A stretch of 64,000 bases of DNA from Acidimicrobiia bacterium (GTDB lineage: Bacteria; Actinomycetota; Acidimicrobiia; IMCC26256; JAGPDB01), in NCBI GenBank assembly GCA_046331265.1, contig JAXLRE010000007.1, positions 21,092 to 85,091 on the forward strand, given 5' to 3'. The translations under genes were made by a program, and so were the position numbers. The notes below the pieces were generated by a model. It was not told where the DNA came from. It did not search any database and was given only the letters and a program-made list of their open reading frames with translations. Shown here one piece after another: positions 20,558 to 42,172 of this stretch; position 1 is the first letter of the stretch, and each line of letters starts with the position of its first letter.

Positions 20558-20588
20558 GCTCCATCAGCGGTTAACCAAGGAGCAAAAA

Positions 20589-25919: not shown

Positions 25920-26471
25920 TTAATGCTTAACAGTTTGTGGTGTTTCTGAAACTGATATTTTTGCTCTTGAAGCTTTGTCTTCACCCTGCATAGAGCCAAC
26001 GGCACGAGATACCAGCTCAGCAGCTGTTTCACAGTGGTCCCAAACTGCTATTCCCGCGGCTAAAGAGGCCGTAGGAGGCAAAGACTCTTGCAGTCTTTCT
26101 ACAGCTTCATAACCTTCGTCTAAACCTGATTCAGGAAACAGGACAAAGAATTCCCCGTCTTCATTTCTTGCGATTAGATCTGAGCCTCTTACCGCTAGAG
26201 CAAAATCTTTTTCTATTTTTGCATATGCTTGTGGATCAGATTTTTTTTCAGAAGTATTAATAGTCATAACCGCTATACATACATCACGTGCATCACGATG
26301 TGATCGAACGATCTCTCTTTGTAAAGATGAATTCCATTCACGTAAACCTGTAAATGTTGAGTCAACAGCTTGAGCAGCAACACGGTCATTACTTTTCCTT
26401 AAGTAGTATGCAATTCCTGCAGCAAGTGCAGCAATAGACGAAACAAAAAGGACAGACTTAAATTTCTTCAT
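25920..26471 (-). CDS. Membrane-anchored degenerate GGDEF-like domain protein (EDGEF in place of GGDEF, RxxD I-site retained)
   Basis: One TM helix, then DSTFTGLREWN (compare D.LTGL.NRR) ... RGSD-LIARN-EDGEF-FVLFPESGLDEGYEAVERLQESL ... AAGIAVW. The FKxxND/GH/GD block is not recognisable. The ATG at 26471 (SD AGGAG 5 nt upstream) is preferred over the TTG at 26486. Confidence 0.5.
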   Translation of the reverse strand: MKKFKSVLFVSSIAALAAGIAYYLRKSNDRVAAQAVDSTFTGLREWNSSLQREIVRSHRDARDVCIAVMTINTSEKKSDPQAYAKIEKDFALAVRGSDLIARNEDGEFFVLFPESGLDEGYEAVERLQESLPPTASLAAGIAVWDHCETAAELVSRAVGSMQGEDKASRAKISVSETPQTVKH

Positions 26472-26593
26472 AACATCTCCTAACAAAACTATTATCGCCT
26501 AAAAAAACTAGCTACGTAAAGGAAAATGTTAAATATTCTTAAAAGTCTAAATCAATCCAGCGAATTTAATGCACTGACGCGAAATGATGACTC

Positions 26594-26842
26594 TTAGTCC
26601 ATACTTTCGCCAGCTAATTCAGCTTCTTTGAGCAACTTAATTATTGCATCGCTAGGATATCGACGGTGACCACCTGGAGTTCTAACTGAAGGAATTCGTC
26701 CTCTACGTGCCCATTCAGCAACTGTTCTTTCTGAGACCTGAAACAATAATGCAATGTCACTTGTACGAAGTAAACGTTTAACAGCTGAAGGTGAAGAAGA
26801 AGTTAGATCTTTTAATAAAGTAGTGCGATCATATTTTGGCAT
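26594..26842 (-). CDS. BldC-like small MerR/excisionase-family HTH DNA-binding protein
   Basis: 82 aa. TSDIALLFQVSERTVAEWARRGRIPSVRTPGGHRRYPSDAI matches the BldC/HTH_17 pattern (...V..WA..G.L...RT.GGHRRY). Confidence 0.65.
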   Translation of the reverse strand: MPKYDRTTLLKDLTSSSPSAVKRLLRTSDIALLFQVSERTVAEWARRGRIPSVRTPGGHRRYPSDAIIKLLKEAELAGESMD

Positions 26843-27861: not shown

Positions 27862-29097
27862 TTAAAATCCTTCGTCTTTATATTCAAATTCCAGCTCACC
27901 GATATGCACAATATCACCGTCTAATATTCCAAATTTTTTCATAGCTTTTTCTACACCCATGCGATTCATTTTTTGATGAACATAATCTAAAGCATCTTCA
28001 TTGGTTATATCGGTCATTGCTACAACTCGCTCTATTGTTTTTCCTGATATGCGATAAGATCCATCATCTTCCCGCGAAATTGAGAATCCACTAGGAGCGG
28101 GCATATGAACGATATAGCTTTCACTTTGTTCATTTTCAGCTTTAGCTTTATTGACCATTGAACCTAATTGTCCAACAAATTCATCTAGTCCAGTTCTGGT
28201 CACCGCGGATATTTTTATGCCATCAAAGTCTTGAGTGGCAACATCAGCTTTTGAACCAACAACCATTCGTGGTCTTTCTAAAAGTTCTGGATTGTATTGG
28301 CCTAGTTCATAGATAAGTTTCTCTTCTTGTTCTTTCGGAGAAATATCATCACTAGGAGCTAAGTCAACCAAAATTACTAAAACCATCGCTCGTTCAATAT
28401 GCTTTAGAAACTGAAAACCTAAACCTTTGCCTTGGCTAGCACCTTCAATTAGCCCAGGTATATCAGCTAAAACAAATTCATGTTCATCAAGTCTAACAAC
28501 ACCTAAGTTTGGCACCAATGTAGTAAATGGGTAGTCTGCAATTTTTGCTTTAACAGAACTTATTGATGATATTAAAGTCGATTTACCTGCATTCGGAAAA
28601 CCAACCAATGCAGCATCAGCCATTAATCTAACTTCTAATGAAATCCAGAATTCTTCGCCTGGTTCACCTTTCTCGGCAAAAGATGGTGCACGCCTTTGAT
28701 TAGATAAAAATCGGGCATTTCCCCTACCTGATCTACCCCCAAGAGCTACTAAAACTTTATCTCCATCGTTTACCAGGTCAGCAATAATCTCACCGTCTTT
28801 ATATGAAACAATAGTTCCTTCAGGTACACGTACAACTTTGTCTTCACCTTTTTTACCGTGCATTTTTTTGCCAGCACCATGGGTACCATTCGAAGCTTTA
28901 ATATGCGGGTGATCACGGTATGCGTAAAGGCTTACGATATTGCGGTCGGCCTGGATCCAGATGCTGCCGCCTTTCCCGCCGTCACCACCATCAGGTCCTC
29001 CTTGAGGGACATGAGCTTCACGACGAAAAGACATTGCTCCATTACCACCGGAGCCTGCTTTGACATTTATATATACACTGTCAACAAATTCACTCAT
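27862..29097 (-). CDS. obg: GTPase Obg/CgtA
   Basis: Glycine-rich Obg fold (GGNGAMSFRRE...GGDGGKGG), G1 GFPNAGKST, DIPGLIEGA, and a C-terminal OCT-like domain. Confidence 0.95.
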   Translation of the reverse strand: MSEFVDSVYINVKAGSGGNGAMSFRREAHVPQGGPDGGDGGKGGSIWIQADRNIVSLYAYRDHPHIKASNGTHGAGKKMHGKKGEDKVVRVPEGTIVSYKDGEIIADLVNDGDKVLVALGGRSGRGNARFLSNQRRAPSFAEKGEPGEEFWISLEVRLMADAALVGFPNAGKSTLISSISSVKAKIADYPFTTLVPNLGVVRLDEHEFVLADIPGLIEGASQGKGLGFQFLKHIERAMVLVILVDLAPSDDISPKEQEEKLIYELGQYNPELLERPRMVVGSKADVATQDFDGIKISAVTRTGLDEFVGQLGSMVNKAKAENEQSESYIVHMPAPSGFSISREDDGSYRISGKTIERVVAMTDITNEDALDYVHQKMNRMGVEKAMKKFGILDGDIVHIGELEFEYKDEGF

Positions 29098-29150
29098 ATT
29101 TACCTCAGGTCAGTGTAAATATGTTTTTAAATTCAAAAAAAGAAATTAAA

Positions 29151-29408
29151 TTAACCTTCAACTGGTACTACGTCTACAGTTTTTTTGTCTTTACGTTCTG
29201 TAAATTGAACTAAACCTTCTTTAAGAGCAAAGAGGGTATCGTCTTTACCAATACCTACGTTACGGCCTGGATGAAACTTAGTTCCACGTTGTCTAACAAT
29301 AATTGCTCCTGGAACAGCAAGCATGCCGCCAAAAAGTTTTACACCTAGTCGCTGTGCATTTGAATCGCGACCATTCTTAACGGAACCTGCACCTTTTTTC
29401 TTTGACAT
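29151..29408 (-). CDS. rpmA: 50S ribosomal protein L27
   Basis: [23 protein letters not shown]...[13 protein letters not shown]. Confidence 0.95.
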
Positions 29409-29417
29409 TATTTTTCC

Positions 29418-29717
29418 TTACAAAGCGATCTTATCGATAGAAATTACATGGTACTTTTGTCGGTGACCATATCGTTTCCTGTTGTTGGATTTATTTTTAT
29501 ATGTAAATCCATCAATTTTTTTACCTTTTGTATCACCGACAATAGAAACAGAAACTGTAGCTTTCGCTAAGTCAGCCTTACTAGAGATTACGTTGTCTCC
29601 GTCAACAATCATTATTGGTTTTACAGTTGGATTTTCTTCATCCAAAAGCTCAACAGTAATACTGTCACCTGTCTCTACTTTATATTGTTTCGAACCATCA
29701 GAAACGATTGCATACAT
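29418..29717 (-). CDS. rplU: 50S ribosomal protein L21
   Basis: MYAIVSDGSKQYKV..., 99 aa, and the rplU-rpmA-obg operon order. Confidence 0.95.
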   Translation of the reverse strand: MYAIVSDGSKQYKVETGDSITVELLDEENPTVKPIMIVDGDNVISSKADLAKATVSVSIVGDTKGKKIDGFTYKNKSNNRKRYGHRQKYHVISIDKIAL

Positions 29718-29784: not shown

Positions 29785-32700
29785 TTATATTGTCTTTGTC
29801 TTATAAAAAAGCTTTCTTCTTACTATCAAAATGCTAATAATCACGATAAATAAACTGAGAGAAAGGATTAATAGTACATATCTAACTAACAATAAATCTC
29901 CGTGTAGAGAACGAGGATTTATATGGTCAATACCGTTCTTATCTGTATTTTCAATATGCTTTGTCCCAGGCACAAGAGATAATTGGATAGTCCTACCTCC
30001 TTCTAGCTTTAATGAATAATCCCCAACATTGATATCTTCGAATGAAAATTTTCCATCTTTATTTGTAGAAGTTTGTCCGATTCGAAGTTTATCTGAGTAC
30101 AGAAACACCTTTGTATCTGGTTCATCTTTACCAACAAGTGATGCGCTACCTACTAAAGGTAACGAAGTAATAGTCACACTCGAATTATTCACCAGCGTAA
30201 CTGCTTTGTCTGTCTTGCCCACTACTCCATCGATAACTTTTTGTTTATTAGATAGTGGAAGAACAAATCCATTCGGTATTGATTTGGATTTTACACCAAC
30301 AAAGTATCTCGCTGGCTTCACTTTACGAAATTCGTAATTACCTGATTTATTTGTAAATGTTGAAGCTACTTGGTTACCAAATAAATCAATAAGAACCACT
30401 TCGAGTCCTGAAACACCTGGTTCAATAGATTCTTTAATATTATTCCTGTTGAAATCTGCCCAGTAACTGCCGTTTATATTCGATCCTCGAAGTTTGTACA
30501 CCAATCGTACTTTATTTAAATTGTTCCCAGGAATAAATGACGTTTTGAAGTCGCCATTAGAAGAAGATTTGATTCGTATAAAACTATCGTTTATAAATTC
30601 GAAACCAGTAGATATATTTCCTTCTAGTGAATAATATGTGGGCGCGATAGAGTCTTTAACAAGATTAAAATCTATTTTTGATTCAACAATCTTTGAAACG
30701 TTGACAGGTTCAGATGCAAGTTCTTGGCTATCAATTTTTTTATTTTCATTAAAATCTACCCATCGAATTAAACGAATATCACCTGTATCCAGTTTTGGAT
30801 CTTCTTTATTATCTGATTTTGATTTAATAGCAATTGAATAACTCCTCTGCTCATTGTCAAGCGGCAAGTTATTACCAAACGACACTTGATTTCGTGATAA
30901 TTGAAACCATTTTGTAACAACAGCCTTTGAGTCTAGATTCGATATTTCAGAATTATTACCAAAAACAAAATCACCACTAGAAACTTTTTTATTTCCTATA
31001 TTTGTATAGACCAATGCGTATGAGGCATCAGGTGTTAAATTTTGGAAACTCGTTTTTCCTTTTGATACACCAAAGTATCCTTCGCTATCAGTTACATCTT
31101 TTGCAATTTCAGGAGTTTCTCCTGGATCCTTAATTCCATCTCCATTGATATCTTTAAATTGCACGAGAGATACTGATACAGAACTAATTGGATATTCACC
31201 ATCATCTTTTATACCATTTGAATTTTGGTCGAAGAAGACCTGCCCACCTATAGAACTTGATTGACCAACTGGGACAATTAATTTTGATATGTCATTATTG
31301 GATAGTTGAACATCATTTCTTTCGTTTATATCTCCATCTGCTTTCACAAAGCTCGATGAAATCATTCGACTAAGTGAAGTAGAAGTCGTAGAAATATTTG
31401 ATATAACAGAAAACTCAATTTGTTTGGTTTCACCTGGATTTAGATCTTTCCTAGATGAACATTTCATTGATTCTTTTATGAACCCACAAGGCGTAAAATC
31501 TCCAGTCGACGTCATTAAGGCACTTTTATAATCAAAGTCTTTACCTAGCTTAGAAGTAATTTGATATCCAGATTTTATAGACACTTGGCTATTGTTTCTA
31601 AGTGATATTTTTACATTAATACTGTCGCCAGGAACGTAACCATTTGATGGTACGTTTGTAAGTTCTTGGGATAGGCCAACATCATATTTTTTAATAAACC
31701 CTATATCTAGATTATTTATTTTACCGTTATTTGCTTCACTTGCGTTAAATATCTCTGTTCGAAATCCATCTGTAGTTTTGACAGATTTATTTGCCTTTTT
31801 TGAAGCTTCTGAAATATCGAATGAAGGATCAATGTTAAATATTCTCGCGTAATATTTTCCAGGTTTTATTAACCTAATAGATATTTGCCCGGATGAATCG
31901 GATTCAGTATCATCACCATTATCATCTTGCGTTCCTAATACTCCATCTTTACCAATATTGATTTGTTTATCATTTGAATCAAATAGTTTAAGTTTTGCTC
32001 CATTAATTCCTAATTCGTTTATATCCTTTACTCCATTACTATTACTGTCTTCATATAAAGATGAAGTAACACTAACTGCGCCAGAATCCGATTTATTTGA
32101 TGAGTTTGTATCAATTGAATTATTTGAATAGCTTAAGTACTCTGTTTTTATCGCAGCACTATTGAGAGACTTATTAGATGTCTTGTCATGTGTGATATTT
32201 GTTAATTTAAGCATGGAAGAACAAATAAGAAGCAAAATAACACTAAACGAAATAAGATTTACCGACCTTGTTAAGAAATCTCGCTGTTTAAATGCTCCAG
32301 CTGATTTAATTACATTGTCATAAGATAAGTTTTCTTCTAATTCAATGTTTCTTGCTTGATGATACGGATAAAGAACTGAACAATAAGTTATTAGATCGTC
32401 CATAGCCTCTTGTGAAAGTTCTTTGAATGCAACACCTATTTGGTATTTATCTCCACGGGCTGCAGAATAAGTCACTTTTCCTACCACTGTTATAAGCGAA
32501 TCGCCATGGATTGTAGGAATTCTGAAAACAATAGGTGTTTCATCTCCGACTTGAAGTTTCGTATCAGATAGATACGCGGCGCCTCGATGGGTGAGATCGA
32601 TTATCCACATAGATTCATAACTAGATGAACCCGTTATGGATACTTGACGCCGCGCGAACGCACGTTGTCGAGCTGACATATACCTCTTTGCTGAATAATA

Positions 32701-34035
32701 AATTATTAGAGCCAAAGGCAGTGTCATGAACAACGAAAAAATTGTTACATTAATCGGTATTAATTTTGAAATGTTTTTATTTTTCACAAAGAAACTATTA
32801 AGTATCAAAGCTATAAATGTGATTAATAAAAAGGCAGGAATTATTTTTACTTTATGATTTGTTAAAAGGTTTTTATGCTTTCTGTTCGAAAAACTTATGC
32901 TTAAAAATGCCTCTAGATCAAGTACTCGATCGCGAATACGTTCGAATAACCCCCTCCTGTCCAACCCTATTTTGGTTGAAAAATACCCAAGAGTGGAAAC
33001 ACCTAAAAGTAAAACAAGATTGATAAATATTTCTTGATTGACTATTTGAGGTCTGATTGATACAGAAAGAAAAGCTACAGCATACAAACACGTAGAAACG
33101 GCTTTAACCCAAAAGAACCGCATGTAAAGCCATCCAAGATATCTACGAATAATGCCCATTGCAGTATCTACATATTCTGGATGTTTACGTAAATTTCGTG
33201 ATACATATATACGCGACAATCTGGTTGTTATATTATGATCGACTTCATTGAAAGACATACATTCACAACATGGATGTGAAGTAATTGTCCCACCCGATCT
33301 TGTAGAAATTATTTTTGCAATAAATTTCTCAAAATTTAAAGTTAGAATTTCTTTTAATATTTCACCCAAACCTGCAATTGTCCCATCAGCTAAAATCGGT
33401 CCACCCGTATAAATAGGAACGTTATAACTTCCTGCTTTTTCTGCAAGCAAAGTATCAATAGATAGATCGTTCCTCGACCTACGGACACCTAAAGCATGCG
33501 AAGAATAGTTACTATGGTTCAGTTCAACAAATGATATCTGTTTTGCAAAGCGTCTTTCCGCTACTAGAACTGAATCAGGATACAAAATCGTATGGCCATT
33601 AGTAACTAAAAATCTCGTATCTTTTACTTCACTATTTAATTCCGAGTTATTGTATTTAAAATTAAATTCACTACATAAAGATTCAATATCTTTTCTATCA
33701 TCTTGTGCAAATACAAAAACTTCTGGTTTGCCTCTCAAGTTCTTAATCGAGAGAAATGAAATTCTTACCGTTTCGTAATCTTCATCACCAACAAAAATTA
33801 AAACACAAGTATTTTTGTCAGCAATCTTCTCGAACGAAACGATGCGTACCCGGCGTAATAAATAAACCTCTATTGAGTGCAGAAAAAATCCAAGTGTAAA
33901 CGATATGAGAATTAGTAACTCAAAAAAGTTTCTAGATTTTACAAAACAATAAATTAAATAGGACATGAAAGCTAATGCACACAATTTGTGCGTCAGCAGC
34001 AAAATAAACTTAGTAAATTTTCTAAGCATTCTCAC
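29785..34035 (-). CDS. Giant membrane protein: BcsA-like core (2 TM / GT-A-like / TM block / partly degenerate PilZ / TM) fused to a ~770-aa extracellular SdrD-B/Cna-B + DUF11 stalk and a C-terminal TM anchor
   Basis: - 1416 aa.
- PilZ region at aa ~455-560 (RRQVSI ... DLTHRG).
- SdrD-B-like signatures: GGQVFFDQNSNGIKDDGEYPISSVSVSLV, SLYEDSNSNGVKDINELGINGAKLKLFD, GSYWADFNRNNIKESIEPGVSGLEVVLIDLFGN.
- DUF11-like block: GDSINVKISLRNNS...DLNPGETKQIEFSV.
- C-terminal end: LLILSLSLFIVIISILIVRRK.
- The start may be GTG 34035 or ATG 34029. Confidence 0.65.
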   Translation of the reverse strand: MRMLRKFTKFILLLTHKLCALAFMSYLIYCFVKSRNFFELLILISFTLGFFLHSIEVYLLRRVRIVSFEKIADKNTCVLIFVGDEDYETVRISFLSIKNLRGKPEVFVFAQDDRKDIESLCSEFNFKYNNSELNSEVKDTRFLVTNGHTILYPDSVLVAERRFAKQISFVELNHSNYSSHALGVRRSRNDLSIDTLLAEKAGSYNVPIYTGGPILADGTIAGLGEILKEILTLNFEKFIAKIISTRSGGTITSHPCCECMSFNEVDHNITTRLSRIYVSRNLRKHPEYVDTAMGIIRRYLGWLYMRFFWVKAVSTCLYAVAFLSVSIRPQIVNQEIFINLVLLLGVSTLGYFSTKIGLDRRGLFERIRDRVLDLEAFLSISFSNRKHKNLLTNHKVKIIPAFLLITFIALILNSFFVKNKNISKLIPINVTIFSLFMTLPLALIIYYSAKRYMSARQRAFARRQVSITGSSSYESMWIIDLTHRGAAYLSDTKLQVGDETPIVFRIPTIHGDSLITVVGKVTYSAARGDKYQIGVAFKELSQEAMDDLITYCSVLYPYHQARNIELEENLSYDNVIKSAGAFKQRDFLTRSVNLISFSVILLLICSSMLKLTNITHDKTSNKSLNSAAIKTEYLSYSNNSIDTNSSNKSDSGAVSVTSSLYEDSNSNGVKDINELGINGAKLKLFDSNDKQINIGKDGVLGTQDDNGDDTESDSSGQISIRLIKPGKYYARIFNIDPSFDISEASKKANKSVKTTDGFRTEIFNASEANNGKINNLDIGFIKKYDVGLSQELTNVPSNGYVPGDSINVKISLRNNSQVSIKSGYQITSKLGKDFDYKSALMTSTGDFTPCGFIKESMKCSSRKDLNPGETKQIEFSVISNISTTSTSLSRMISSSFVKADGDINERNDVQLSNNDISKLIVPVGQSSSIGGQVFFDQNSNGIKDDGEYPISSVSVSLVQFKDINGDGIKDPGETPEIAKDVTDSEGYFGVSKGKTSFQNLTPDASYALVYTNIGNKKVSSGDFVFGNNSEISNLDSKAVVTKWFQLSRNQVSFGNNLPLDNEQRSYSIAIKSKSDNKEDPKLDTGDIRLIRWVDFNENKKIDSQELASEPVNVSKIVESKIDFNLVKDSIAPTYYSLEGNISTGFEFINDSFIRIKSSSNGDFKTSFIPGNNLNKVRLVYKLRGSNINGSYWADFNRNNIKESIEPGVSGLEVVLIDLFGNQVASTFTNKSGNYEFRKVKPARYFVGVKSKSIPNGFVLPLSNKQKVIDGVVGKTDKAVTLVNNSSVTITSLPLVGSASLVGKDEPDTKVFLYSDKLRIGQTSTNKDGKFSFEDINVGDYSLKLEGGRTIQLSLVPGTKHIENTDKNGIDHINPRSLHGDLLLVRYVLLILSLSLFIVIISILIVRRKLFYKTKTI

Positions 34036-34115
34036 CCCATGCCTATTAACCTTGTCTTTAATATCGGCAGGAATTACTTAAAGCTAGAGCTATATCGTTT
34101 TACCTGGTAAAAGGC

Positions 34116-36053
34116 TTATCTTAGGTTTGATAAGTTAGAAAAAATGATTGCAGCTAATGCTGTAAAAGATGCCGCATATGATAAAAACCTTTTTTCTGGT
34201 TTACCATTAAATTTTCTAGATACTTGTTCAGTTTTAACACCGGTTTTAGCTTCACGCGCTTGTTCGAAAGGATAGATAATAGAGCAATATTTTTCAAGTG
34301 TATCTATTTGACTCTGTTTTAAATCAATAAACTCAATCCCTAATCTATATGAATCGTTCCAAGCTACACATGATTTGATGTAAGCGTTACAAGAAAATTT
34401 TTCATTAGTTGAGTTCTTTGTAGGAAGTGAAGATTCAAATATGATCTCTCTACCTTCTTCATATGGCTCTACAGATACACAACCTGCTCCACCAGCTGAA
34501 AGATCAATCATCGATATCGGCTTAGAATCAATATTCGCTCCACGTGACACTTCACGTCTCATTGCGCTTCTTGATTGACGAATAATTACCATTCCTAATC
34601 CAATTAGTAACGTAACCAATAATGCATAGCCAGCAAATAACGATCCATATTTAAGTAAACGTGGAACTAACAATTCTGGAACATTTTTATGCTGTATATA
34701 GGCCCGGTAAATCAAAACTACGTCGGTGACTATTAGAAGAAAACTAACACTAGGAAGCTTCTTTACAATTGATTTTGTACTCGATCTCTTTTCAGGAGAC
34801 ATAAAAACCTTATAAATGTTATACATTACCGCTTCAACATCAAAATAATACTCACGAACGCGAGCTAGAGGTCCCCTTTTATCTCCAGCTAAAACGCTGC
34901 CTAAAAATACAGTCAATATAGTTGCCAAAGCAGCTGAAATATATGTTTGGTTTACGAAAGAAAAGTTCGATGGATACAGCACAAATCCTAGAACAAGAGC
35001 AATCATTCCAACACGTCGAATTAGTGAAGCATTAATCATTAAAGACCAAGTCTTTACTCCTAGCCCAATAATTCGCTTCCCTTTAGGATACGAATTACGC
35101 CAAGCACCAGAAGAATATAGGAAATCTAATCCACGCCATTGAACCTCAGAAATTGTTTGTTCATACGAAATTTCTTCACTAACGACCTCTTCAGTTATTG
35201 TTCCATGTATGTTATTTCGTTCGCAAGATCTTAAGAAAGATGCGGAACTTGTTGCATAAGAAGAATTGTTAAGAGCTGATGCATTAACTAAAACAGGTCC
35301 AGTTGACCAAGTCGATAAGGAACGTGACGCCAATGCTTCTCTAATCATTTGCCTTTTATCGCTAACCTCAATAATGCCATTTACACCTAAAGCTCGTTCA
35401 TCACTATATACACTTCGCAATTCTAAAAATGTTGATTCGTCTACTTTGTAGTTTTTAGCAACTGCAAATGCATCTGGATACATGATGTCAGTCCCACGAC
35501 AAATTAAAACTTGATCTGTTGTCGCTGCGATGTTGTGAAAACTCTCTGCGACATGAAAACTAAAATCCTTTGTTAATATTTCTCGCTCTGGTGAAAGAGA
35601 ATTATCGATTACATAAACATTTGCAGCATTATCGAGCATTTCGATTGAAAGAAAACATCTACGTAACTGATCAATAGTTGCTTCTTCAGCAAAAATTACA
35701 ACATCTATCGGAGCAATACCATATTCACCACTCGCAACAATTTGCTCAGTTTCTACTTTAATTGTATTTGTTCCAGCATTTTGTTCTGCATTGGCTGCTT
35801 TTGAATATAGAACTTTTTTTGCAGATTCTATAAGTACATTTTCATCTTGGACACGGTTATTTGTTGATACTTTTGTAGCCATTAATGATGCTTCGACACA
35901 TACCAACGCCAAAAGTGTGAATTCACAAGTAGCGGTTAAAACATTTATATCACTGTAATTATTAATTAGCGTGGTAAGCCTGTAAATTCCATAGGCAATA
36001 GAAGCGATTGCAACAATTGCAGCACCAATCTTCCTCTGATAAGAATTCTTCAC
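34116..36053 (-). CDS. BcsA-like membrane protein: 2 TM / GT2-like cytoplasmic domain / TM block / canonical PilZ domain / C-terminal TM
   Basis: 645 aa, GTG start with SD AGGAG. PilZ motifs are RREVSR (RRxxxR) and DLSAGG (DxSxxG). The GT2-like pattern is IDVVIFAEEATIDQL...VYVIDNS...ICRGTDIMYPD. It is a paralogue of the first ~610 aa of the downstream 1416-aa gene. Confidence 0.65.
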   Translation of the reverse strand: MKNSYQRKIGAAIVAIASIAYGIYRLTTLINNYSDINVLTATCEFTLLALVCVEASLMATKVSTNNRVQDENVLIESAKKVLYSKAANAEQNAGTNTIKVETEQIVASGEYGIAPIDVVIFAEEATIDQLRRCFLSIEMLDNAANVYVIDNSLSPEREILTKDFSFHVAESFHNIAATTDQVLICRGTDIMYPDAFAVAKNYKVDESTFLELRSVYSDERALGVNGIIEVSDKRQMIREALASRSLSTWSTGPVLVNASALNNSSYATSSASFLRSCERNNIHGTITEEVVSEEISYEQTISEVQWRGLDFLYSSGAWRNSYPKGKRIIGLGVKTWSLMINASLIRRVGMIALVLGFVLYPSNFSFVNQTYISAALATILTVFLGSVLAGDKRGPLARVREYYFDVEAVMYNIYKVFMSPEKRSSTKSIVKKLPSVSFLLIVTDVVLIYRAYIQHKNVPELLVPRLLKYGSLFAGYALLVTLLIGLGMVIIRQSRSAMRREVSRGANIDSKPISMIDLSAGGAGCVSVEPYEEGREIIFESSLPTKNSTNEKFSCNAYIKSCVAWNDSYRLGIEFIDLKQSQIDTLEKYCSIIYPFEQAREAKTGVKTEQVSRKFNGKPEKRFLSYAASFTALAAIIFSNLSNLR

Positions 36054-36140: not shown

Positions 36141-37970
36141 TCAATTCGGACTTATTTCGCCTTCAGAAGCTCTGACATTTGGGGCAAAACCACCGACCAT
36201 TTCATGATCGATTACGAAGCCTCGACCTTCACAAGTACTACACACTTCAGCAAAACTCTCGACCATACCTTCAGACAATCGTTTTCTCGTCATTTGAACT
36301 AATCCTAGTTCTGTGACTTCGAAAACCTGGGTGCGTGTTTTGTCTCGAGCCAAAGCTTCTCTAAGTTTTTGAGTCAACTTATATCGATTTTCTTCTGTTT
36401 CCATATCGATAAAGTCAATAACGATGATTCCACCAATGTCTCTGAGTCTAAGTTGTCTAGCAATTTCGTCAGCTGCTTCTAAGTTGTTGTGAAAAACAGT
36501 TTCTTCTAAATTAGACGTACCGACATTCTTTCCGGTGTTAACGTCAATAACAGTTAATGCTTCTGTACGTTCAATAATTAAAGAGCCACCGCTAGGTAAC
36601 CAAACTTTTTTCTCTAAAGCTTTAGTTAGTTGTTCAGTAATGTGATAGCGCTCATAAATATCAAGCTCATCGTCATGCTCATAATACTGAACTCGGCTAG
36701 ATAATTCTGGAGCAATTGCATCAACATATGATTTTATTTGATCATATAGTTCTTTATTATCTACAACAATTGATCGAAATTCTTTGTTGAACTCTTCTCT
36801 AATCATACGCATGACTAATGAAGGTTCTTTGTAAAGCAATGTAGCTGTTTTGGAGCTTTCGGCTTTAGCTGCTACTTGTTTGATTTGGCTCCATTGTTCT
36901 GTTAAACGAATCATGTCACGTCTTAATTCATCGTCTGTCGCACCTTCAGCAGCTGTTCGAACTATTAGACCAGCATCATCTGGACGTATCTCATCTAAAA
37001 TTCTCCTCAGACGTCTTCGTTCTTCATCTGGAAGCCGTTTTGATATTCCATATGTATCACTTTGATTAGGAATTAACACAACGAAACGACCTGCTAACGA
37101 AACTTCTTGAGTTAAGCGTGCCCCCTTATGCGCTATTGGGTTTTTTGTAACTTGGACAAGAACCATTTGTCCATTACTTAGCGACTCTTCTATGCGAGGT
37201 GTTTGGTTTGGATATTTTGTTTTGTCATAAGCAACATCTGCTCGATACAAAACCGCATTCTTAGGTGTAGCAATATCGATAAAAGCTGCTTCCATTCCTG
37301 GGAGAACATTTTGCACGCGGCCTAAATAGATATTTCCGTCAATAGATGTTGTTTCGTCTAAATCGGATCTAGAGACATAATGCTCAGTTAAAATACGGCC
37401 TTCTGTAATTGCTAGCTGTGTATTTCCCCTTTTATCAACATGGATATATATCGAATAACGGCCTGTTGCTTTACCCTTACCCAGCTTTTTCAAGCGTTTT
37501 TTAAGAGTTTTCTTATCTAATTCAAAATCTTCGTCTACTCCCAAGTTAGCTACTACATGTTCTAGCGTCTCATCAGTAGCGGCTGGAGCTTTATCTTTTT
37601 TGCTTCTTTTTCGTTTCTCTTTAGTCTCTTTTTTGTCGATTTTATTTAAGGCGTCTACAGAAATCGTTGAACCGATCTTAGGTTTAGCTTCTTCAGCTGA
37701 ACTTTCTACACGCTTTCTACGTCTAGCTTTAGGCTGAACAACACTTGGCGTTTCTTCTGCATCAATCGCTTCAGACTTTGCATCGTCGAGGATATCTTCG
37801 TTAGTAAAAACACGATCGTTATCTACATCTGGCTCTGAAGGGGTTAAAACCTTTCTTCTTCTCCTAGTTGTAGTTTGCGAAATCTCTATTTCATTTTCAC
37901 TTGATTCTATGTTGTTAATAATTGTGTTATCTGCTTGATTTTCAGCAGTATCGGATTGTAATTCTGACAT
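36141..37970 (-). CDS. rne: Ribonuclease E/G
   Basis: Acidic/basic low-complexity N-terminus, S1 domain GNIYLGRVQNVLPGMEAAFIDI, catalytic VIDVNTGKNVG and DFIDM, and Zn-link CSTCEGRG. Confidence 0.9.
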   Translation of the reverse strand: MSELQSDTAENQADNTIINNIESSENEIEISQTTTRRRRKVLTPSEPDVDNDRVFTNEDILDDAKSEAIDAEETPSVVQPKARRRKRVESSAEEAKPKIGSTISVDALNKIDKKETKEKRKRSKKDKAPAATDETLEHVVANLGVDEDFELDKKTLKKRLKKLGKGKATGRYSIYIHVDKRGNTQLAITEGRILTEHYVSRSDLDETTSIDGNIYLGRVQNVLPGMEAAFIDIATPKNAVLYRADVAYDKTKYPNQTPRIEESLSNGQMVLVQVTKNPIAHKGARLTQEVSLAGRFVVLIPNQSDTYGISKRLPDEERRRLRRILDEIRPDDAGLIVRTAAEGATDDELRRDMIRLTEQWSQIKQVAAKAESSKTATLLYKEPSLVMRMIREEFNKEFRSIVVDNKELYDQIKSYVDAIAPELSSRVQYYEHDDELDIYERYHITEQLTKALEKKVWLPSGGSLIIERTEALTVIDVNTGKNVGTSNLEETVFHNNLEAADEIARQLRLRDIGGIIVIDFIDMETEENRYKLTQKLREALARDKTRTQVFEVTELGLVQMTRKRLSEGMVESFAEVCSTCEGRGFVIDHEMVGGFAPNVRASEGEISPN

Positions 37971-38198: not shown

Positions 38199-38921
38199 TC
38201 ACAAGGATTTTTCTGTAATCATGTCGAGAAAGTTATTAAATAATACGTTCGAAGTTCTATCATATGATTCTTTATATGATGCGTACTCTTTTCGTAATTG
38301 AGCATGATCGTATATCCGTAAATCATCATCGAGCACAATAACTTCTTCAAATAATTCTTCTGTTAACTCAACATGTGCTTGAATTCCGTATGCACAGTCA
38401 CCTACTTTTATAATTTGGTTTTTACACCACTTTCCTGTTCCTAATATATGTACAGAATCATTTTCAATTATTGTTTCACCATGTAATTGAAAAACATCGA
38501 ATTGTTTGGCTAAACCAGAAAATAATGGATCTATAAGACCATGTTCATTGAGTTCAATTTTAAAACTTTCGTTTTTTTGGTCCATAAATCCAATTTCCTT
38601 AATATCTGCCTTAACTACTTGAGCACCGGCTGCGGCAGCAAGGAGCTGCATACCTAAACAAATTCCAAAATATGGTTTCGATTGTTCAATTGCATCTTTT
38701 ATTAGCTGTATTTCAAGATTTATTTTCTCAGAATCATCATTAGCACTGTCAGGACCACCACAAATCACTACCCCACAATAATTATCTAGATCTAGCGGCT
38801 TCTCTCCTGCATTAAGATCGACTACATCAATTGCGAAACCCCTGTTACGTGCATGTTGCAAAAACGAACCAGGCCCTTCGTGTGTAATATTCTTTAATAT
38901 AAGTATTGGAGATTTAACCAT
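38199..38921 (-). CDS. Class I glutamine amidotransferase-like protein
   Basis: ILILKNITHEGPGSF..., nucleophile elbow FGICLGMQLL, and a C-terminal IQAHVE (His-Glu) motif. Confidence 0.75.
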   Translation of the reverse strand: MVKSPILILKNITHEGPGSFLQHARNRGFAIDVVDLNAGEKPLDLDNYCGVVICGGPDSANDDSEKINLEIQLIKDAIEQSKPYFGICLGMQLLAAAAGAQVVKADIKEIGFMDQKNESFKIELNEHGLIDPLFSGLAKQFDVFQLHGETIIENDSVHILGTGKWCKNQIIKVGDCAYGIQAHVELTEELFEEVIVLDDDLRIYDHAQLRKEYASYKESYDRTSNVLFNNFLDMITEKSL

Positions 38922-39521
38922 ATGTTAAGACTACAGGAAAATTTAGTTAACTACTTTAATGATTCAATTCAACACAGAAATATACATAAATGCGGGAGTT
39001 ATCCATACGCAGATGGACTGTTTTTAAACGAATTTGTCAGACAATTCAAAATAAAATCTGTTTTAGAAATCGGTACAGGTATTGGATATTCTTCTACATG
39101 TTTGGCATTAGATAATGATGTAAAAGTTACGACCATTGAAATGATTGAGGATCATATAGAAATTGCAAAAAAATATTGGAATAATTTTTCGACAGAAAAT
39201 ATATATCCAATTATGGGAAAATCTCTAGAAGTGCTACCAGACCTTACTGATAAATTTGAAATGATATTTTTCGATGCTTTTGCACCTAACCCACAAGAAG
39301 CAGAATTGTATTTAAACTTAATAGACAGCAAAGGAATAATTGTTACTACAAATATTTCTTGGAACGATACTACTCAACCATATTTAAAAGTTTTTAATGA
39401 TGCAGGTCTTTTCACCATTGTCAACGATGACACCGCTTTTAGTTCATTTAACGAAACTTTTACAGAACAAAGCTCCAGCTTTTATTTATCTAAAAACTGG
39501 AGCTTCGCTGAGACTAGTTAA
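38922..39521 (+). CDS. Class I SAM-dependent methyltransferase (O-MT / MnmC-methyltransferase-like)
   Basis: SAM motif I VLEIGTGIGYSS. FFDAFAPNPQEAELY resembles the D.F.P..NP..W motif of MnmC-type methyltransferases. Confidence 0.6.
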   Translation: MLRLQENLVNYFNDSIQHRNIHKCGSYPYADGLFLNEFVRQFKIKSVLEIGTGIGYSSTCLALDNDVKVTTIEMIEDHIEIAKKYWNNFSTENIYPIMGKSLEVLPDLTDKFEMIFFDAFAPNPQEAELYLNLIDSKGIIVTTNISWNDTTQPYLKVFNDAGLFTIVNDDTAFSSFNETFTEQSSSFYLSKNWSFAETS

Positions 39522-40480
39522 CTATTTCTGAGTGCTTTTATTCTTCTACGATTAGCAAATATCAAAATAGCTGCCATGATGCCGCTCATATTTACCAATA
39601 TAAATGAGAAGTCTAAAATATTGCTTTTTGTAAACGACCAACTACCTAGCAACAAATGATTTGGATTTAGCACTGATTTAGCAACTTCTGGAATTTCTGA
39701 CATTAAGCCAGAAATAGTCCCTATTGAAGGAGTTAATGTTGTAGCTCCACTTGTTGATGAATTCGTAAGTGCTGTCAAAGAGTTACCAGAATGAGATCCA
39801 GTTGTTCCTGTACTAACACCGCTGTTGCTTGAACCTTCGCTAGTTGAGTTCGAATCTGTCGCCGCATACCTAACAACATTTTCGCCAAGAACGGAAGCCC
39901 CATTTTGTATAGCTGAATAGTCGCTAACTGAAGCTTGACCTAAGCGGACACGTAGAGTTCCGCCTGCGGTCATACCATTTATTCGTATAGTCCATTCTGT
40001 AGATGAATTCTGCACGAAACTATATACATTTCCGCCACCATCCAAGATTAGATCGCTTTGGTCAAATGATGGAGCCCAAATTGGTTTAGAAAATTCGACG
40101 TTGAAACAAGCATCGTCTACATTTATTTCTTCACCAGTTCCAGGACAACGATTTATGGTCACTTGTAGTTCATTATTGTCATAAACCAAGTGCATAATGT
40201 TATTGGAGTAAAGCGCGAAACCATCACGGCCCATTTGGAATTCGTAAGCGAATTCGTAGCTATCTGGTTCACTTAGATTTCCTGCTAGTACTACTCCATA
40301 AACTTCAGTTTGATTAGAGGTGAAACCTTGACCAGTTTGAATGTTGATCTGTAGTGGAAAACTAGCACCTGATGGCACAATCCCTAATGAACTTACGAAT
40401 AAGCATTGAATGACTTCTCCAGTATATAGAGTGGAATGCTGGTCCAAGATCTTGAATCTGTCCAATGCTTGTACAACCAA
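39518..40480 (-). CDS. C-terminal fragment of a disrupted surface protein (Ig-like adhesin domains, S/T-rich stalk, C-terminal TM + RRRIK tail)
   Basis: It has no signal peptide and only a TTG 'start'. Its reading frame is the same as that of the upstream 40514..40714 fragment. It ends ...GIMAAILIFANRRRIKALRNS. Confidence 0.5.
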   Translation of the reverse strand: MVVQALDRFKILDQHSTLYTGEVIQCLFVSSLGIVPSGASFPLQINIQTGQGFTSNQTEVYGVVLAGNLSEPDSYEFAYEFQMGRDGFALYSNNIMHLVYDNNELQVTINRCPGTGEEINVDDACFNVEFSKPIWAPSFDQSDLILDGGGNVYSFVQNSSTEWTIRINGMTAGGTLRVRLGQASVSDYSAIQNGASVLGENVVRYAATDSNSTSEGSSNSGVSTGTTGSHSGNSLTALTNSSTSGATTLTPSIGTISGLMSEIPEVAKSVLNPNHLLLGSWSFTKSNILDFSFILVNMSGIMAAILIFANRRRIKALRNS

Positions 40481-40513
40481 TGCGAAAGAATACGGATCGC
40501 TTAGGATCTAGTA

Positions 40514-40714
40514 TCAACAACACCTAGCAGATCTGCTCCTGCAGGAAAGTAAGTAATACAATCCGACTTGGTCTGAATAGATATCACCTGCGCCGATATT
40601 AGAAACATTCACTTCATAACTTACATCTGATCCTTCTGAAATATCTCCTGAAGTTAATAATCGAGTTTGAATTGCAAGATCACCAGGTTCTCCAACAGGT
40701 GCAGATACAGCCAT
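40514..40714 (-). pseudogene. Middle fragment (DUF11-like domain) of the same disrupted surface-protein gene
   Basis: EPGDLAIQTRLLTSGDISEGSDVSYEVNVSNIGAGD is DUF11-like. The frame continues upstream across an in-frame TAA (40748..40750) and downstream after TGA/TAG (40508..40516). Confidence 0.5.
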
Positions 40715-40788
40715 TGTTTGGTTGTTCTGATTCGAATCTGGGTTTGGTTATCTCCACCAACTAATTTCGACACTAACAATGGTTACAG

Positions 40789-42063
40789 CTAAAGATACTG
40801 TATCTCCAATAGGTGCTGTGATATTGTCCTTCTTGAAGGATTCAATACTAAACATTGACCAGCCCTTACATTCAATCCTGTCCAAACACTTTCAGGTGTA
40901 ACCGAACCAGGATCTGTAGCACTATTTCCTTGGTCTGTTTGTTTTTGTGAATCGATTTTTGTCATTGTCCAACCTTGAACATCAAAGTCGAAAGTAATTT
41001 CTTCTACAGCTCCAAAACCTGATGTGCAAATATGCACCCATGAATTTGAATATAAACCATTTACTGGAAATACAACATTGTTATTGCCTACATACATATT
41101 TAGATCTACATCAAGAACGATCTCAACAATGTCTTGGATCAGATCTGGTTGACCACCATTGTTTAATGAACCTGGATTATCAGATCCATCTCCTAACTTG
41201 CTTGAAAGTAAATTCAAGTTCCATGAAGCTTGTTGACCAATTTCTCCACTAACTGTGCCCTGTCCACCAAAACTTACACACTGACCTGCTTGCATAAGAC
41301 CTGTCCAATGGCCGTTAGCGTCAATAGTTCCTTTATCTAGAACATCTTGATTGCTCCATTGATTATCTTGGACACTATAAGTAACGTTTGACCAATTTGA
41401 AGTTTGCACATCTAAATCAAATTCTGAAACTGAACCATATCCAGAAGCACAAACGTTAAACCAGTTTTGGTATGTTTGATCTGGATAGACAGTTGTTTGA
41501 TTATTGCCCATACCAATATAGGTTTGTAAATCAACTTGATATACAGGTGTCACAATAGGATAAGAAATTGTTGGTGAAGAATTTTCTTGAATAACTCCTT
41601 GATTCGGTGTGTCGTCGACGAGAGTGCTTGAAGTAACAGATACTGTTTCAGTTAATGTGTCTCCCACATTTCCTGTTACAGTTCCCCAAGGGAAAAGTGT
41701 AAAACATTGATTGTCTTCTATTAAACCATTCCAAACACCGTTTAGATCAACACTTCCTAAATCAGTTGCTGTATTCCACTCGTTTCTTTCTTGAACAGAA
41801 AGTTGTGTCATGTTCCAGTTGGTTGCTTGAATATCAAAATCAATTGTTTTGATTGAACCTGCACCATAAGAACAAACTTGAATCCAGTTATTGTCGTAAA
41901 ATGCTCCAGGCATATATTCAGTTTTAGAACTTCCAACATATATGAAGAAATCTGCGTTATTACCATCTGCTGCAAACGCACTAGATACATTCACGACTTG
42001 AGTAGTCCCAAGCATAAACATCAACATTGTGGAGATCAATATGGCTTTTAGTTTCTTGCCCAT
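40789..42063 (-). CDS. N-terminal fragment of the disrupted surface protein: signal peptide plus three ~140-aa tandem repeats of an unrecognised Cys-containing domain
   Basis: ATG 42063 with SD AGAGGTG gives MGKKLKAILISTMLMFMLGTTQVVNVSSAFA|ADG. The repeats begin near aa 52, 192 and 334 (track numbering). The third repeat is cut by a frameshift near 40845. Confidence 0.6.
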   Translation of the reverse strand: MGKKLKAILISTMLMFMLGTTQVVNVSSAFAADGNNADFFIYVGSSKTEYMPGAFYDNNWIQVCSYGAGSIKTIDFDIQATNWNMTQLSVQERNEWNTATDLGSVDLNGVWNGLIEDNQCFTLFPWGTVTGNVGDTLTETVSVTSSTLVDDTPNQGVIQENSSPTISYPIVTPVYQVDLQTYIGMGNNQTTVYPDQTYQNWFNVCASGYGSVSEFDLDVQTSNWSNVTYSVQDNQWSNQDVLDKGTIDANGHWTGLMQAGQCVSFGGQGTVSGEIGQQASWNLNLLSSKLGDGSDNPGSLNNGGQPDLIQDIVEIVLDVDLNMYVGNNNVVFPVNGLYSNSWVHICTSGFGAVEEITFDFDVQGWTMTKIDSQKQTDQGNSATDPGSVTPESVWTGLNVRAGQCLVLNPSRRTISQHLLEIQYL

Positions 42064-42172
42064 TTTTACACCTCTGCTGTCCCGACTTATGTATTTATAT
42101 CGTCGCAAAAGAGGGATTTAAGAATAGGTCTAAAGAACTGTTTATTCGCAGATTGTTAAATATTTAACGCAG

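Follow-up and report, generated by a model that had tools for sequence, protein, structure and literature searches.

The locus raises the question of what two long, BcsA-like genes are doing between rne and rplU in the 64,000-nucleotide stretch of DNA analysed here (the window), which comes from a marine-type actinobacterium of the Acidimicrobiia with a small genome, and whether their products make a polysaccharide under the control of cyclic diguanylate (c-di-GMP) or serve another purpose. The two same-strand open reading frames (ORFs) have exactly the coordinates and lengths given in the preliminary description (Table 1), the peptide strings quoted there are all found in the translations, and its flanking genes rne, rplU, rpmA and obg, together with proB, were confirmed by NCBIfam profiles. 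The small paralogue (MFN8016097.1, named at NCBI simply a PilZ domain-containing protein) has a GTG start with an AGGAG ribosome-binding site 8 nt ahead of it. For the large paralogue (MFN8016096.1, SdrD B-like domain-containing protein), the NCBI model has a later start and 1393 amino acids, which would cut away the first transmembrane (TM) helix; the ATG at 34029, giving 1414 amino acids, is the more likely start because homologues begin with MLRR or MLRK and a purine-rich stretch precedes this ATG. The small paralogue follows rne after 87 bp, and rplU begins 67 bp past the large one. The genes mreB-mreC-mreD-PBP2-rodA lie upstream, in the same strand block as both paralogues and rne.

Table 1. 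Features of the rne-rplU locus (positions in the window)
Feature	Position	Strand	Basis
rne (RNase E/G family), upstream flank	36141..37970	-	NCBIfam TIGR00757, 471.7 bits
Small paralogue, 645 aa	34116..36053	-	ORF; BcsA-derived pseudo-glycosyltransferase and PilZ domain
Small, degenerate GT-A-like cytosolic domain, aa 116-320	35094..35708	-	Motif tables against E. coli and R. sphaeroides BcsA; hhalign
Small, four TM helices and amphipathic loop, aa 321-492	34578..35093	-	Hydropathy, model secondary structure, alignments
Small, PilZ domain, aa 493-600	34254..34577	-	Pfam, alignments
Small, C-terminal TM helix, aa 616-645	34119..34208	-	Hydropathy, AF2 model
Large paralogue, 1416 aa in the ORF list, more likely 1414 aa	29785..34035	-	ORF; BcsA-like pseudo-synthase/PilZ module and extracellular stalk
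Large, degenerate GT-A-like domain, about aa 70-280	33190..33822	-	Motif tables, AF2 model
Large, PilZ domain, about aa 455-560	32350..32667	-	Pfam (26.8 bits), motif table, regex position
Large, extracellular array, about aa 613-1383	29881..32193	-	SdrD_B, CarboxypepD_reg and SpaA profiles
Large, C-terminal TM anchor and basic RRKLFYKTKTI tail	29821..29877	-	Hydropathy, homologue alignment
rplU-rpmA-obg, downstream flank	27862..29717	-	NCBIfam L21, L27, Obg
HTH_17/MerR-type DNA-binding protein, 82 aa, possibly associated	26594..26842	-	Pfam HTH_17, 45.9 bits
Membrane-anchored degenerate GGDEF-like protein, 188 aa, possibly associated	25920..26486	-	Pfam, NCBIfam, profile-to-PDB, orthologues

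The two proteins are paralogous, as had been proposed: residues 118-638 of the small protein match residues 78-602 of the large one (BLASTP, E=3e-28, 23% identity over 542 aligned positions). A hydropathy scan gave both of them two TM helices, a cytosolic domain of ~280 amino acids, four TM helices, a PilZ domain and one further TM helix, with one extra C-terminal TM helix in the large paralogue; the predicted topology is self-consistent, with PilZ in the cytosol and the stalk of the large paralogue outside. The helix after PilZ, which is the most conserved segment of the small paralogue (mean majority frequency 0.86), places the C-terminus of that protein outside the cell. The previously reported layout is not only real but homologous to that of BcsA according to both Foldseek and hhalign. 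BcsA ranked first in the structural search proposed by the preliminary description, both for the AF2 model of the small paralogue (pLDDT 75.6, pTM 0.73; best match 4p00_A, E=1.2e-13, TMq 0.57) and for that of the N-terminal 618 amino acids of the large one (pLDDT 77.7, pTM 0.77; best match E. coli BcsA 9fp0_A, E=1.2e-15); across both models, which are of moderate confidence (pLDDT 76-78) with TM-scores to BcsA of 0.5-0.57, the top matches were 4p00, 9b8v and 9fp0 (E=1e-13 to 1e-15). A small-plus-large profile aligned by hhalign with true BcsA over 540 collinear columns (99.6% probability, E=6.7e-25), and with a profile built from just 16 close orthologues the PilZ domain alone matched. Searches by jackhmmer seeded with BcsA fragments of E. 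coli or R. sphaeroides reach both proteins as single collinear domains. Intermediate relatives have Pfam GT2 and PilZ domains and match NCBIfam CelA, one of them (P0041) matching E. coli BcsA at 2.8e-35; Pfam GT2 matches were also obtained in the distant relatives P0036, P0038, P0041, P0111 and P0129. Judged by these profiles and predicted models, which agree on both homology and fold, the two proteins are descendants of a BcsA-type processive GT2 synthase.

The catalytic part of the BcsA inheritance was not recovered. Neither protein matched Glycos_transf_2 (PF00535), the profile suggested earlier, or any other Pfam GT2 family at E<=1, nor any NCBIfam GT2 family, and by each of three alignment methods the six BcsA signature elements DDG, HAKAGN, DxD, TED, QxxRW and FxVTxK were missing or deleted from the two paralogues and every orthologue; neither result supports the exopolymer reading of the preliminary description. 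Residues aligned to BcsA catalytic positions are non-acidic or deleted in both paralogues, calls that come from alignments at 10-20% identity and moderate-confidence AF2 models. The large paralogue has NGH at the DxD position and lacks TED, QxxRW and HAKAGN, and the FxVTxK position is gapped or unrelated (KR, KHKNLL) in the window proteins, compared with FRVTPK in the relative P0087. This relative keeps all of the BcsA catalytic motifs, so the alignment method is able to detect them, and degeneration of the motifs is graded across the wider clade. Both proteins are thus most likely pseudo-synthases, in which the glycosyl-transfer motifs appear to have been lost altogether. What remains is well conserved: among 16 small-type orthologues, invariant columns make up 27% of the GT-like domain, 35% of PilZ and 30% of the C-terminal TM helix, and all domains are evidently under purifying selection. 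Residues 321-492 of the small paralogue correspond to BcsA TM5-8 and IF3 minus the FxVTxK gating loop, with a conserved amphipathic loop (GDxRG..RxRExYFDxEA, SIVKKLP). The invariant charged residues kept in its GT-like domain (D189, D194, E211, E293, E294 and R307) might make up an active or ligand site of an unconventional kind.

The PilZ domains have fared differently from the catalytic motifs. In the PF07238 search that had been called for, both proteins scored above the gathering cut-off of 22.5 bits (25.2 bits small, 26.8 bits large), and the PilZ region reached 97% in hhalign. With the small PilZ domain alone, Foldseek matched Alg44 4rt0 (TMt 0.67) and MotI; over both paralogues the PilZ-fold matches were Alg44, PA PilZ and MotI (TMt 0.60-0.67). 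The motifs read RSAMRR and DLSxGG in the small paralogue, where R495xxxR499 and S519xxG522 are invariant and D517 is replaced by N in one orthologue, and RAFARR and DLTHRG in the large paralogue, where the hexamer DLTHRG is identical in 10/10 large-type sequences and Thr replaces the Ser of DxS/TxxG, as it does in 69/178 superfamily matches. Some distant relatives have degenerate PilZ motifs (RxxxQ in P0035; G to D in P0039, P0040 and P0048). The PilZ domains of both window proteins carry RxxxR and DxS/TxxG intact, and these motifs are predicted to bind c-di-GMP.

The stalk and C-terminal anchor of the large paralogue were overlooked in the preliminary description. The stalk, of ~770 residues, consists of SdrD-B-type calcium-binding Ig-like/beta-sandwich domains: SdrD_B matched in four stretches (97.2 bits), CarboxypepD_reg and SpaA matched as well, and five calcium-loop motifs of the (F/W/Y)xDxNxNGxxDxxE type were found at positions 661, 934, 960, 1092 and 1192. 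LPXTG is absent from the C-terminus of the large paralogue and its close homologues, which end instead in a TM helix and RRKL tail; LP(I/F)TG followed by a TM helix and basic tail was seen only in the distant relatives P0033, P0035, P0040 and P0048, the distant relatives being giant LPXTG proteins of 1.9-2.8 kaa. A BcsB-like partner gene with a C-terminal TM anchor is absent from the scanned ORFs of the window, in line with what had been noted earlier, and the stalk and anchor alter the meaning of that absence.

Five genomes have the pair between rne and rplU, retained at identities of 50-64% across them. In a sister clade there is just one copy at this site, corresponding to the tail-less small type, and in more distant Acidimicrobiia (L016, L017) rne directly adjoins rplU, so the paralogue genes were inserted at some point. 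The preliminary description had read the locus as an insertion and proposed a comparison of the rne-rplU spacer. An ancestral gene order without the pair is upheld by the distant Acidimicrobiia; a recent event is not, given the five genomes, the sister clade and the GC content of the pair, which is in line with that of the flanks. Occurrence of the pair at the same site in the clade relatives therefore refutes the insertion reading within the clade, by the earlier description's own reasoning. To judge from this distribution the insertion is ancient, not recent, and the position between rne and rplU is fixed across the whole of a narrow, low-GC clade of Acidimicrobiia.

The window was also examined for other components of c-di-GMP signalling. 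No canonical GG[DE]EF or real EAL motif was found by regular expression in any window ORF of at least 120 amino acids, and no diguanylate cyclase was found within the window. The 188-aa membrane-anchored protein has EDGEF at the GGDEF position, lacks the metal-binding Asp, and has an invariant RGSD motif, spaced as an RxxD inhibitory site would be; its Pfam GGDEF and GGDEF_2 matches are sub-threshold, SiaD matched at 3e-6, its profile matched GGDEF structures in the PDB (E=0.002), and mean column identity in its orthologue alignment is 77%. Among the genomes compared, its gene occurs only in those with the PilZ genes. The 82-aa HTH gene, located between proB and the GGDEF-like gene, has the same phyletic pattern and is absent from one distant Acidimicrobiia locus without the PilZ pair. 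The degenerate GGDEF protein with its RxxD site may be part of the same circuit as the paralogues. The remaining scanned ORFs of the window (profile scans covering all but ~18 ORFs at its two ends) are housekeeping genes.

The explanation that we prefer, to which we give about an even chance of being correct on sequence and model evidence, is that both paralogues are non-catalytic BcsA descendants acting as membrane c-di-GMP receptors, not polysaccharide makers. They would have kept from their ancestor the membrane scaffold, a GT-A-like domain that is strongly conserved though non-catalytic, and a canonical PilZ domain. The ligand c-di-GMP would occupy the RxxxR linker and the PilZ barrel, which follow immediately on the final TM helix of the bundle, as they do in BcsA; rather than open a catalytic site, its binding would induce a conformational change in the pseudo-GT domain and the TM bundle. 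The corresponding module of the large paralogue would be connected via TM7 to the calcium-stiffened stalk, the far end of which would be re-anchored by the C-terminal TM helix, or by sortase to the wall in distant relatives. Most plausibly, the signal would run from the inside out and alter a surface structure or a tether that spans the envelope, with the tail-less small paralogue as a partner or regulatory subunit. The lineage may make no c-di-GMP at all.

Other explanations were weighed against the same evidence. That the large paralogue is a surface protein or adhesin, its BcsA-like module a mere polytopic anchor, its PilZ domain vestigial or turned to another ligand, and the small paralogue a tail-less remnant or chaperone, appears unlikely. 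MSCRAMM-type B repeats do make up most of its length, NCBI names it for the SdrD B-like domain only, and the giant LPXTG relatives, some with degenerate PilZ, and the lack of a cyclase in the window fit such a protein; against this, neither paralogue shows more than slight variation in RxxxR and DxS/TxxG within the window's clade, few regions of the protein are as well conserved as PilZ, and the sister clade keeps the small paralogue alone, which makes an anchor-only module hard to explain.

It is quite improbable that the pair still works as a processive glycosyltransferase gated by c-di-GMP, two BcsA-like exopolysaccharide synthases with catalytic residues diverged beyond recognition. Retention of the whole BcsA-like fold with its TM bundle, the strongly conserved GT-like domain with invariant acidic residues, the BcsB-like topology of the beta-sandwich array and C-terminal anchor, and the existence of genuine GT2-PilZ synthases in related Acidimicrobiales (L010) speak for activity, yet all six signature elements are gone, even a permissive GT2 match is lacking, the motifs decay by degrees across the wider clade but are retained in P0087, and ORF profile scans found no sugar-nucleotide or export genes near the pair. 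Those scans found no candidate synthase nearby either, which bears on a further proposal, that the proteins form a non-catalytic, c-di-GMP-gated translocation channel or scaffold that exports or organises a polymer made by other enzymes, or partners cell-wall machinery such as MreBCD-PBP2-RodA. The conserved TM bundle and IF3-like amphipathic helix would suit a channel, as would the shared strand block with the mre-rodA genes and rne, in which no terminator-like sites were found in the spacers, including that between rne and the small paralogue; however, QxxRW, the acceptor/channel-entry motif, and the gating loop have disappeared, and the closeness to mre and rodA, which dates back to the ancestral gene order (L016, L017), lends no specific support, so that this proposal is very doubtful.

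Compared with known systems, the window proteins share with BcsA (PDB 4HG6/4P00; E. coli 9FP0/9B8V) the order of TM helices, cytosolic GT-A domain, TM bundle with interface helices, and C-terminal PilZ joined via an RxxxR linker. They differ from it in lacking the catalytic motifs and gating loop, in having two N-terminal TM helices instead of four, in the true TM helix that follows PilZ and brings the C-terminus outside, and in being encoded by tandem paralogues, one of them extended by an extracellular Ig-like stalk of ~800 aa, with no BcsB, BcsC or BcsZ genes nearby. The large stalk and C-terminal TM helix recall BcsB, an analogy of topology only. The GT2-PilZ synthases of Actinobacteria and Acidimicrobiales (P0087; L010 ORF 2434-4515, with GT2, Cellulose_synt and PilZ by Pfam) belong to the same superfamily and phylum and are plausibly the ancestral state; unlike the window proteins, they retain both the catalytic motifs and the gating loop, lack a stalk and are encoded elsewhere than between rne and rplU. 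SdrD/MSCRAMM B-repeat surface proteins of Gram-positives have SdrD_B domains and DxNxNG-type calcium loops in common with the large paralogue, which has neither an N-terminal signal peptide nor an A domain and begins instead with a seven-TM BcsA-like/PilZ module. PelD, LapD and FimX are c-di-GMP receptors with degenerate GGDEF/EAL domains, LapD being an earlier example of a cell-surface protein that c-di-GMP controls from the inside out. These receptors have no sequence relationship to the window proteins, and in them the dead domain itself binds c-di-GMP, whereas in the window proteins PilZ is intact and the output GT2 domain is dead; the likeness lies in an enzyme fold without catalysis that is kept as a signalling module.

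Two paralogous reverse-strand genes occupy the interval between rne and the rplU-rpmA-obg-proB block, the flanking genes on both sides being named by NCBIfam; the features of the locus and of related contigs are collected in the table. The NCBI names of the two products are only 'PilZ domain-containing' and 'SdrD B-like'. The peptides that the preliminary description quoted as common to the two proteins were found in both, and a BLASTP alignment of residues 118-638 of the small paralogue with residues 78-602 of the large (E=3e-28, 23% identity over 542 positions) confirmed that they are paralogues. The GTG start of the small gene is preceded by an AGGAG site. The large gene probably begins at an ATG two codons downstream of the start in the ORF list, because its homologues start with MLRR or MLRK; the NCBI model of 1393 aa cuts off the first transmembrane (TM) helix. 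The source is an Acidimicrobiia MAG, with a GC content of about 35%, which may belong to an Actinomarinales-like lineage, and the GC of the pair (0.32-0.37) is inside the range of the window. The spacers at the locus (87, 80 and 67 bp) are free of terminator-like hairpins, so that co-transcription is possible; a promoter and terminator scan of the three spacers found no informative sites, and an Rfam search for leaders and riboswitches in the surroundings of the locus and the whole window returned three tRNAs only.

Coordinates of features in the window and on contigs of relatives (L0xx)
Feature	Contig	Coordinates	Strand	Remarks
Small paralogue	window	34116..36053	(-)	ORF, 645 aa
Large paralogue	window	29785..34035	(-)	ORF, 1416 aa as listed
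Start options of large gene	window	33967..34035	(-)	GTG 34035 (ORF list); ATG 34029 (homologues); NCBI model 23 codons later
rne	window	36141..37970		NCBIfam
Degenerate GGDEF-like protein	window	25920..26486	(-)	188 aa, N-terminally membrane-anchored
HTH_17/MerR-type protein	window	26594..26842	(-)	82 aa, DNA-binding domain only, between proB and GGDEF-like gene
GATase, O-methyltransferase, two Pfam-less ORFs	window	38199..42108		Pfam-less ORFs of 320 and 439 aa
Pfam-less ORF (E<=1e-6)	window	11242..12762		506 aa
Pfam-less ORF (E<=1e-6)	window	12904..14337		477 aa
Pfam-less ORF (E<=1e-6)	window	20556..21692		378 aa
Pfam-less ORF (E<=1e-6)	window	48225..48752		175 aa
Guanylate_cyc + AAA_16 protein	L016	11648..14941	(-)	1097 aa, between rpmA and obg, opposite strand
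YajQ-family gene (PF04461)	L011	2080..2568	(-)	convergent, after P0036
Giant relative P0033	L013	547..8691		LP(I/F)TG C-terminus

In a hydropathy scan both proteins begin with a pair of TM helices, which a cytosolic domain (~280 aa) separates from a set of four; a PilZ domain and one more TM helix come next, and the large protein has an additional TM helix at its extreme C-terminus. The Pfam PilZ profile scores 25.2 bits against the small and 26.8 bits against the large protein (gathering score 22.5). AlphaFold2 models of the small protein (pLDDT 75.6, pTM 0.73) and of residues 1-618 of the large (pLDDT 77.7, pTM 0.77) were compared with the PDB, in which BcsA, the c-di-GMP-gated cellulose synthase, fills the top eight or nine matches for both (small model against 4p00_A, E=1.2e-13; large model against 9fp0_A, E=1.2e-15), with full-length TM-scores of 0.50-0.58, followed by hyaluronan synthase and plant CesA; PilZ-only matches to Alg44 and MotI were obtained too. 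Searches with jackhmmer from fragments of E. coli or R. sphaeroides BcsA recover both proteins as single collinear domains. With hhalign, 16 close orthologues aligned with four true BcsA sequences over the PilZ domain alone, and homology of the glycosyltransferase (GT) domain emerged only when both paralogue families were pooled (99.6% probability, E=6.7e-25, 540 columns against true BcsA); the small-plus-large alignment, used as a sequence profile against the PDB, gave no BcsA and only a marginal match to the PilZ domain of MotI. The Foldseek, jackhmmer and hhalign matches, together with hydropathy and the Pfam PilZ model, indicate that the TM/GT-A-like/TM/PilZ layout and the BcsA kinship first read from the sequence are correct. 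The pair descends from BcsA and, judged by sequence and predicted structure, is a variant within the BcsA/GT2-PilZ superfamily.

Neither protein is recognisable, by profile or motif, as a glycosyltransferase. Pfam GT2 families gave no match to either, even at E<=1, nor did NCBIfam GT2 models. Three independent alignments, two with jackhmmer (on BcsA of E. coli and of R. sphaeroides) and one with hhalign, agree on the fate of the BcsA motifs. DDG is replaced by IDNS in the small protein and falls in a gapped or unaligned stretch lacking DDG in the large; HAKAGN is deleted from both; DxD (FDADH) corresponds to CRGTD and TNGHT, respectively; TED is TSS in the small protein and has no acidic equivalent in the large; QxxRW has become QWRG, with the R-W pair deleted, and TTRLSR; and the FxVTxK gating loop is absent from both. 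Every orthologue of either paralogue shares its set of substitutions. All the motifs (DD, HAKAGN, DAD, AED, QRSRW and FRVTPK) are kept in the relative P0087, which shows that the alignment method is able to detect them and that the wider clade varies in its degree of degeneration. Among 16 orthologues of 50-64% identity, 27% of columns are invariant in the GT-like domain, compared with 35% in PilZ; thus the former shows no decay, is under purifying selection and is a conserved non-catalytic, or at least unconventional, domain. Decaying pseudogenes were rejected as an explanation, the ORFs being intact and kept throughout the clade. The exopolymer option among those raised in the preliminary description is not supported, as the GT2 profile match is absent and the catalytic and gating motifs are gone in both paralogues.

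The PilZ domains, from their motifs, look functional. In the small paralogue, R495xxxR499R500 and D517-L-S519-x-G-G522 are invariant between orthologues apart from N in place of D517 in one; the large paralogue carries R-AFA-RR together with D-L-T-H-R-G, a hexamer identical in 10 of 10 large-type sequences examined. The two forms DxTxxG and DxSxxG are about equally common (69 and 68) among 178 aligned PilZ domains of the superfamily. As in BcsA, the RxxxR motif lies on the linker by which the chain exits the final TM helix of the bundle.

Residues ~613-1383 of the large paralogue comprise beta-sandwich domains of SdrD_B (97 bits, four stretches), SpaA and CarboxypepD_reg type with five calcium-loop motifs of the form (F/W/Y)xDxNxNGxxDxxE, followed by a TM helix and an RRKLFYKTKTI tail. 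The predicted topology is self-consistent, with PilZ cytosolic, TM7 leading outward, the stalk extracellular and the last helix re-entering the membrane. Close homologues of the large paralogue all end in a TM helix and an RRKL-type tail, without LPXTG. Four giant relatives of 2.5-2.8 kaa (P0033, P0035, P0040 and P0048) join the BcsA-like/PilZ N-terminal module to many SdrD_B repeats and end in LP(I/F)TG, a hydrophobic segment and a basic tail, the classical sortase signal; one end of these proteins would be polytopic in the membrane and the other is predicted to be wall-linked. Tail-bearing proteins are successive outgroups to both paralogues in a rough neighbour-joining tree, so that the small paralogue probably lost its tail.

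When 1.84 billion representatives were searched exhaustively with a profile, only 18 proteins reached E<=1e-30 and 394 reached E<=1e-3, and a scan of the contigs of species representatives yielded no more than 6 loci; close relatives are thus rare, and few species representatives carry the family. Distant full-length matches carry Pfam GT2 and PilZ and cover most of the length of the NCBIfam CelA model, and one of them, P0041, reaches E=2.8e-35 against E. coli BcsA. The distant relatives P0036, P0111, P0033 and P0037 are on short contigs, at locations other than rne-rplU. After P0036, a degenerate GT2-PilZ relative, comes a convergent YajQ-family gene; some members of that family bind c-di-GMP.

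The order rne, small, large, rplU, rpmA, obg, proB, 82-aa HTH gene, GGDEF-like gene of about 184 aa, proA is shared by the window and four other genomes (L001, L003, L004 and L005), with identity of the small protein down to 50%. The next clade out (L015), with an RNase E 61% identical to that of the window, has one small-type PilZ gene of 643 aa in the same place. Among more distant Acidimicrobiia, rne directly adjoins rplU in L016 and L017, and the gap in a third (L018) holds three unrelated genes; originally, therefore, the site was an rne-rplU junction. This comparison places the arrival of a BcsA-like gene at the junction in an ancestor of the window's clade, the two-gene state being fixed in the focal clade. 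The insertion proposed in the preliminary description is thus real but ancient: the same pair is at the same site across the genomes of the clade, the outcome that the description itself had named as counting against insertion. Recent horizontal insertion was likewise rejected, given the deep synteny and the match in GC to the flanks. Three MAG records with the locus (L005, L006 and L008) are titled 'uncultured Burkholderiales bacterium', and the locus is of actinobacterial type (rne, PilZ pair, rplU, obg, proB), so that the titles look like taxonomic mislabels. The Guanylate_cyc + AAA_16 gene of L016 is another insertion of a signalling gene into the same housekeeping block. Upstream of rne, L016-L018 have a Radical_SAM_N2 and DUF2344 gene pair; in the window, as in its clade, a GATase, an O-methyltransferase and two Pfam-less ORFs take the place of that pair.

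Canonical GG[DE]EF and real EAL motifs are absent from window ORFs of at least 120 aa (regular-expression search), as the preliminary description had it. The profile-scanned genes of the window are all housekeeping (valS, folC-like, ndk, mreBC, PBP2, rodA, leuS, comEA/EC, holA, lepA, nadD and rsfS), and four Pfam-less ORFs are found amid the housekeeping block. The 188-aa GGDEF-like protein has EDGEF at the GGDEF position, lacks the metal-binding Asp and has an invariant RGSD five residues upstream, the spacing of the RxxD inhibitory site; its mean column identity is 77% in 5 genomes. The 82-aa HTH protein resembles small BldC-type regulators. Both genes are present in 6 of 6 genomes with PilZ genes; they are missing from the proB-proA interval of L017, and a counterpart of neither was seen in L016. 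This co-occurrence is suggestive of association and is confounded by shared ancestry.

We favour the view that the two proteins are membrane c-di-GMP receptors. Binding of c-di-GMP at the TM6-PilZ linker would reshape the pseudo-GT/TM module; in the large paralogue, the change would be passed to the doubly anchored, calcium-stiffened stalk, and a tether of the envelope or a structure at the surface would thereby come under inside-out control. The role of a partner subunit would fall to the small paralogue, in which conservation peaks at the C-terminal TM helix. Taken whole, this proposal could equally well stand or fall. The BcsA-like fold and the conserved GT-like domain might instead belong to a cryptically active synthase, a reading that faces the missing catalytic and gating motifs and is rather improbable. 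The stalk would also suit a surface protein for which the module is merely an anchor and PilZ is vestigial; set beside the near-invariant PilZ motifs, this is unlikely, if less so than an active synthase. The proteins might also serve other machinery as a channel or scaffold that lacks catalysis, which we consider as improbable as the synthase.

A broader and doubtful extension would be an undescribed class of c-di-GMP effector, in which a catalysis-stripped cellulose-synthase scaffold has become a PilZ-controlled, envelope-spanning tether, with a polytopic module at one end and a calcium-stiffened Ig-like stalk re-anchored in the membrane, or in the wall by sortase, at the other. Such a class would provide inside-out second-messenger control of the envelope or surface in Actinobacteria, and the paralogues, possibly with the GGDEF/RxxD and HTH proteins, would form a self-contained circuit kept even in highly streamlined planktonic genomes. 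The fusion to a doubly anchored Ig-like stalk, and the upkeep of ~2060 codons within the rne-rplU core of a genome that is small and low in GC, argue for an important envelope function.

A limited search of the literature on c-di-GMP or PilZ in Actinomarinales, and on degenerate or inactive GTs combined with PilZ, turned up neither a BcsA-PilZ family devoid of the motifs nor a fusion of BcsA-PilZ to SdrD-B/LPXTG stalks; PilZ, c-di-GMP and cellulose go unmentioned in the Actinomarinales genome paper. To our knowledge, PilZ effectors are essentially uncharacterised in Actinobacteria, and we know of no BcsA homologue that retains PilZ but lacks every catalytic motif. Inference of cellulose or EPS synthesis from architecture would mislead here; the obvious functional reading is overturned, and the pair points towards a kind of actinobacterial c-di-GMP effector that has gone unstudied. 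BldD, RsiG and GlgX, the c-di-GMP receptors known from Actinobacteria, belong to other kinds. The pseudo-enzyme principle is well known from degenerate GGDEF and EAL receptors, whereas here, if the proposal is right, it would reach the output side of a c-di-GMP effector.
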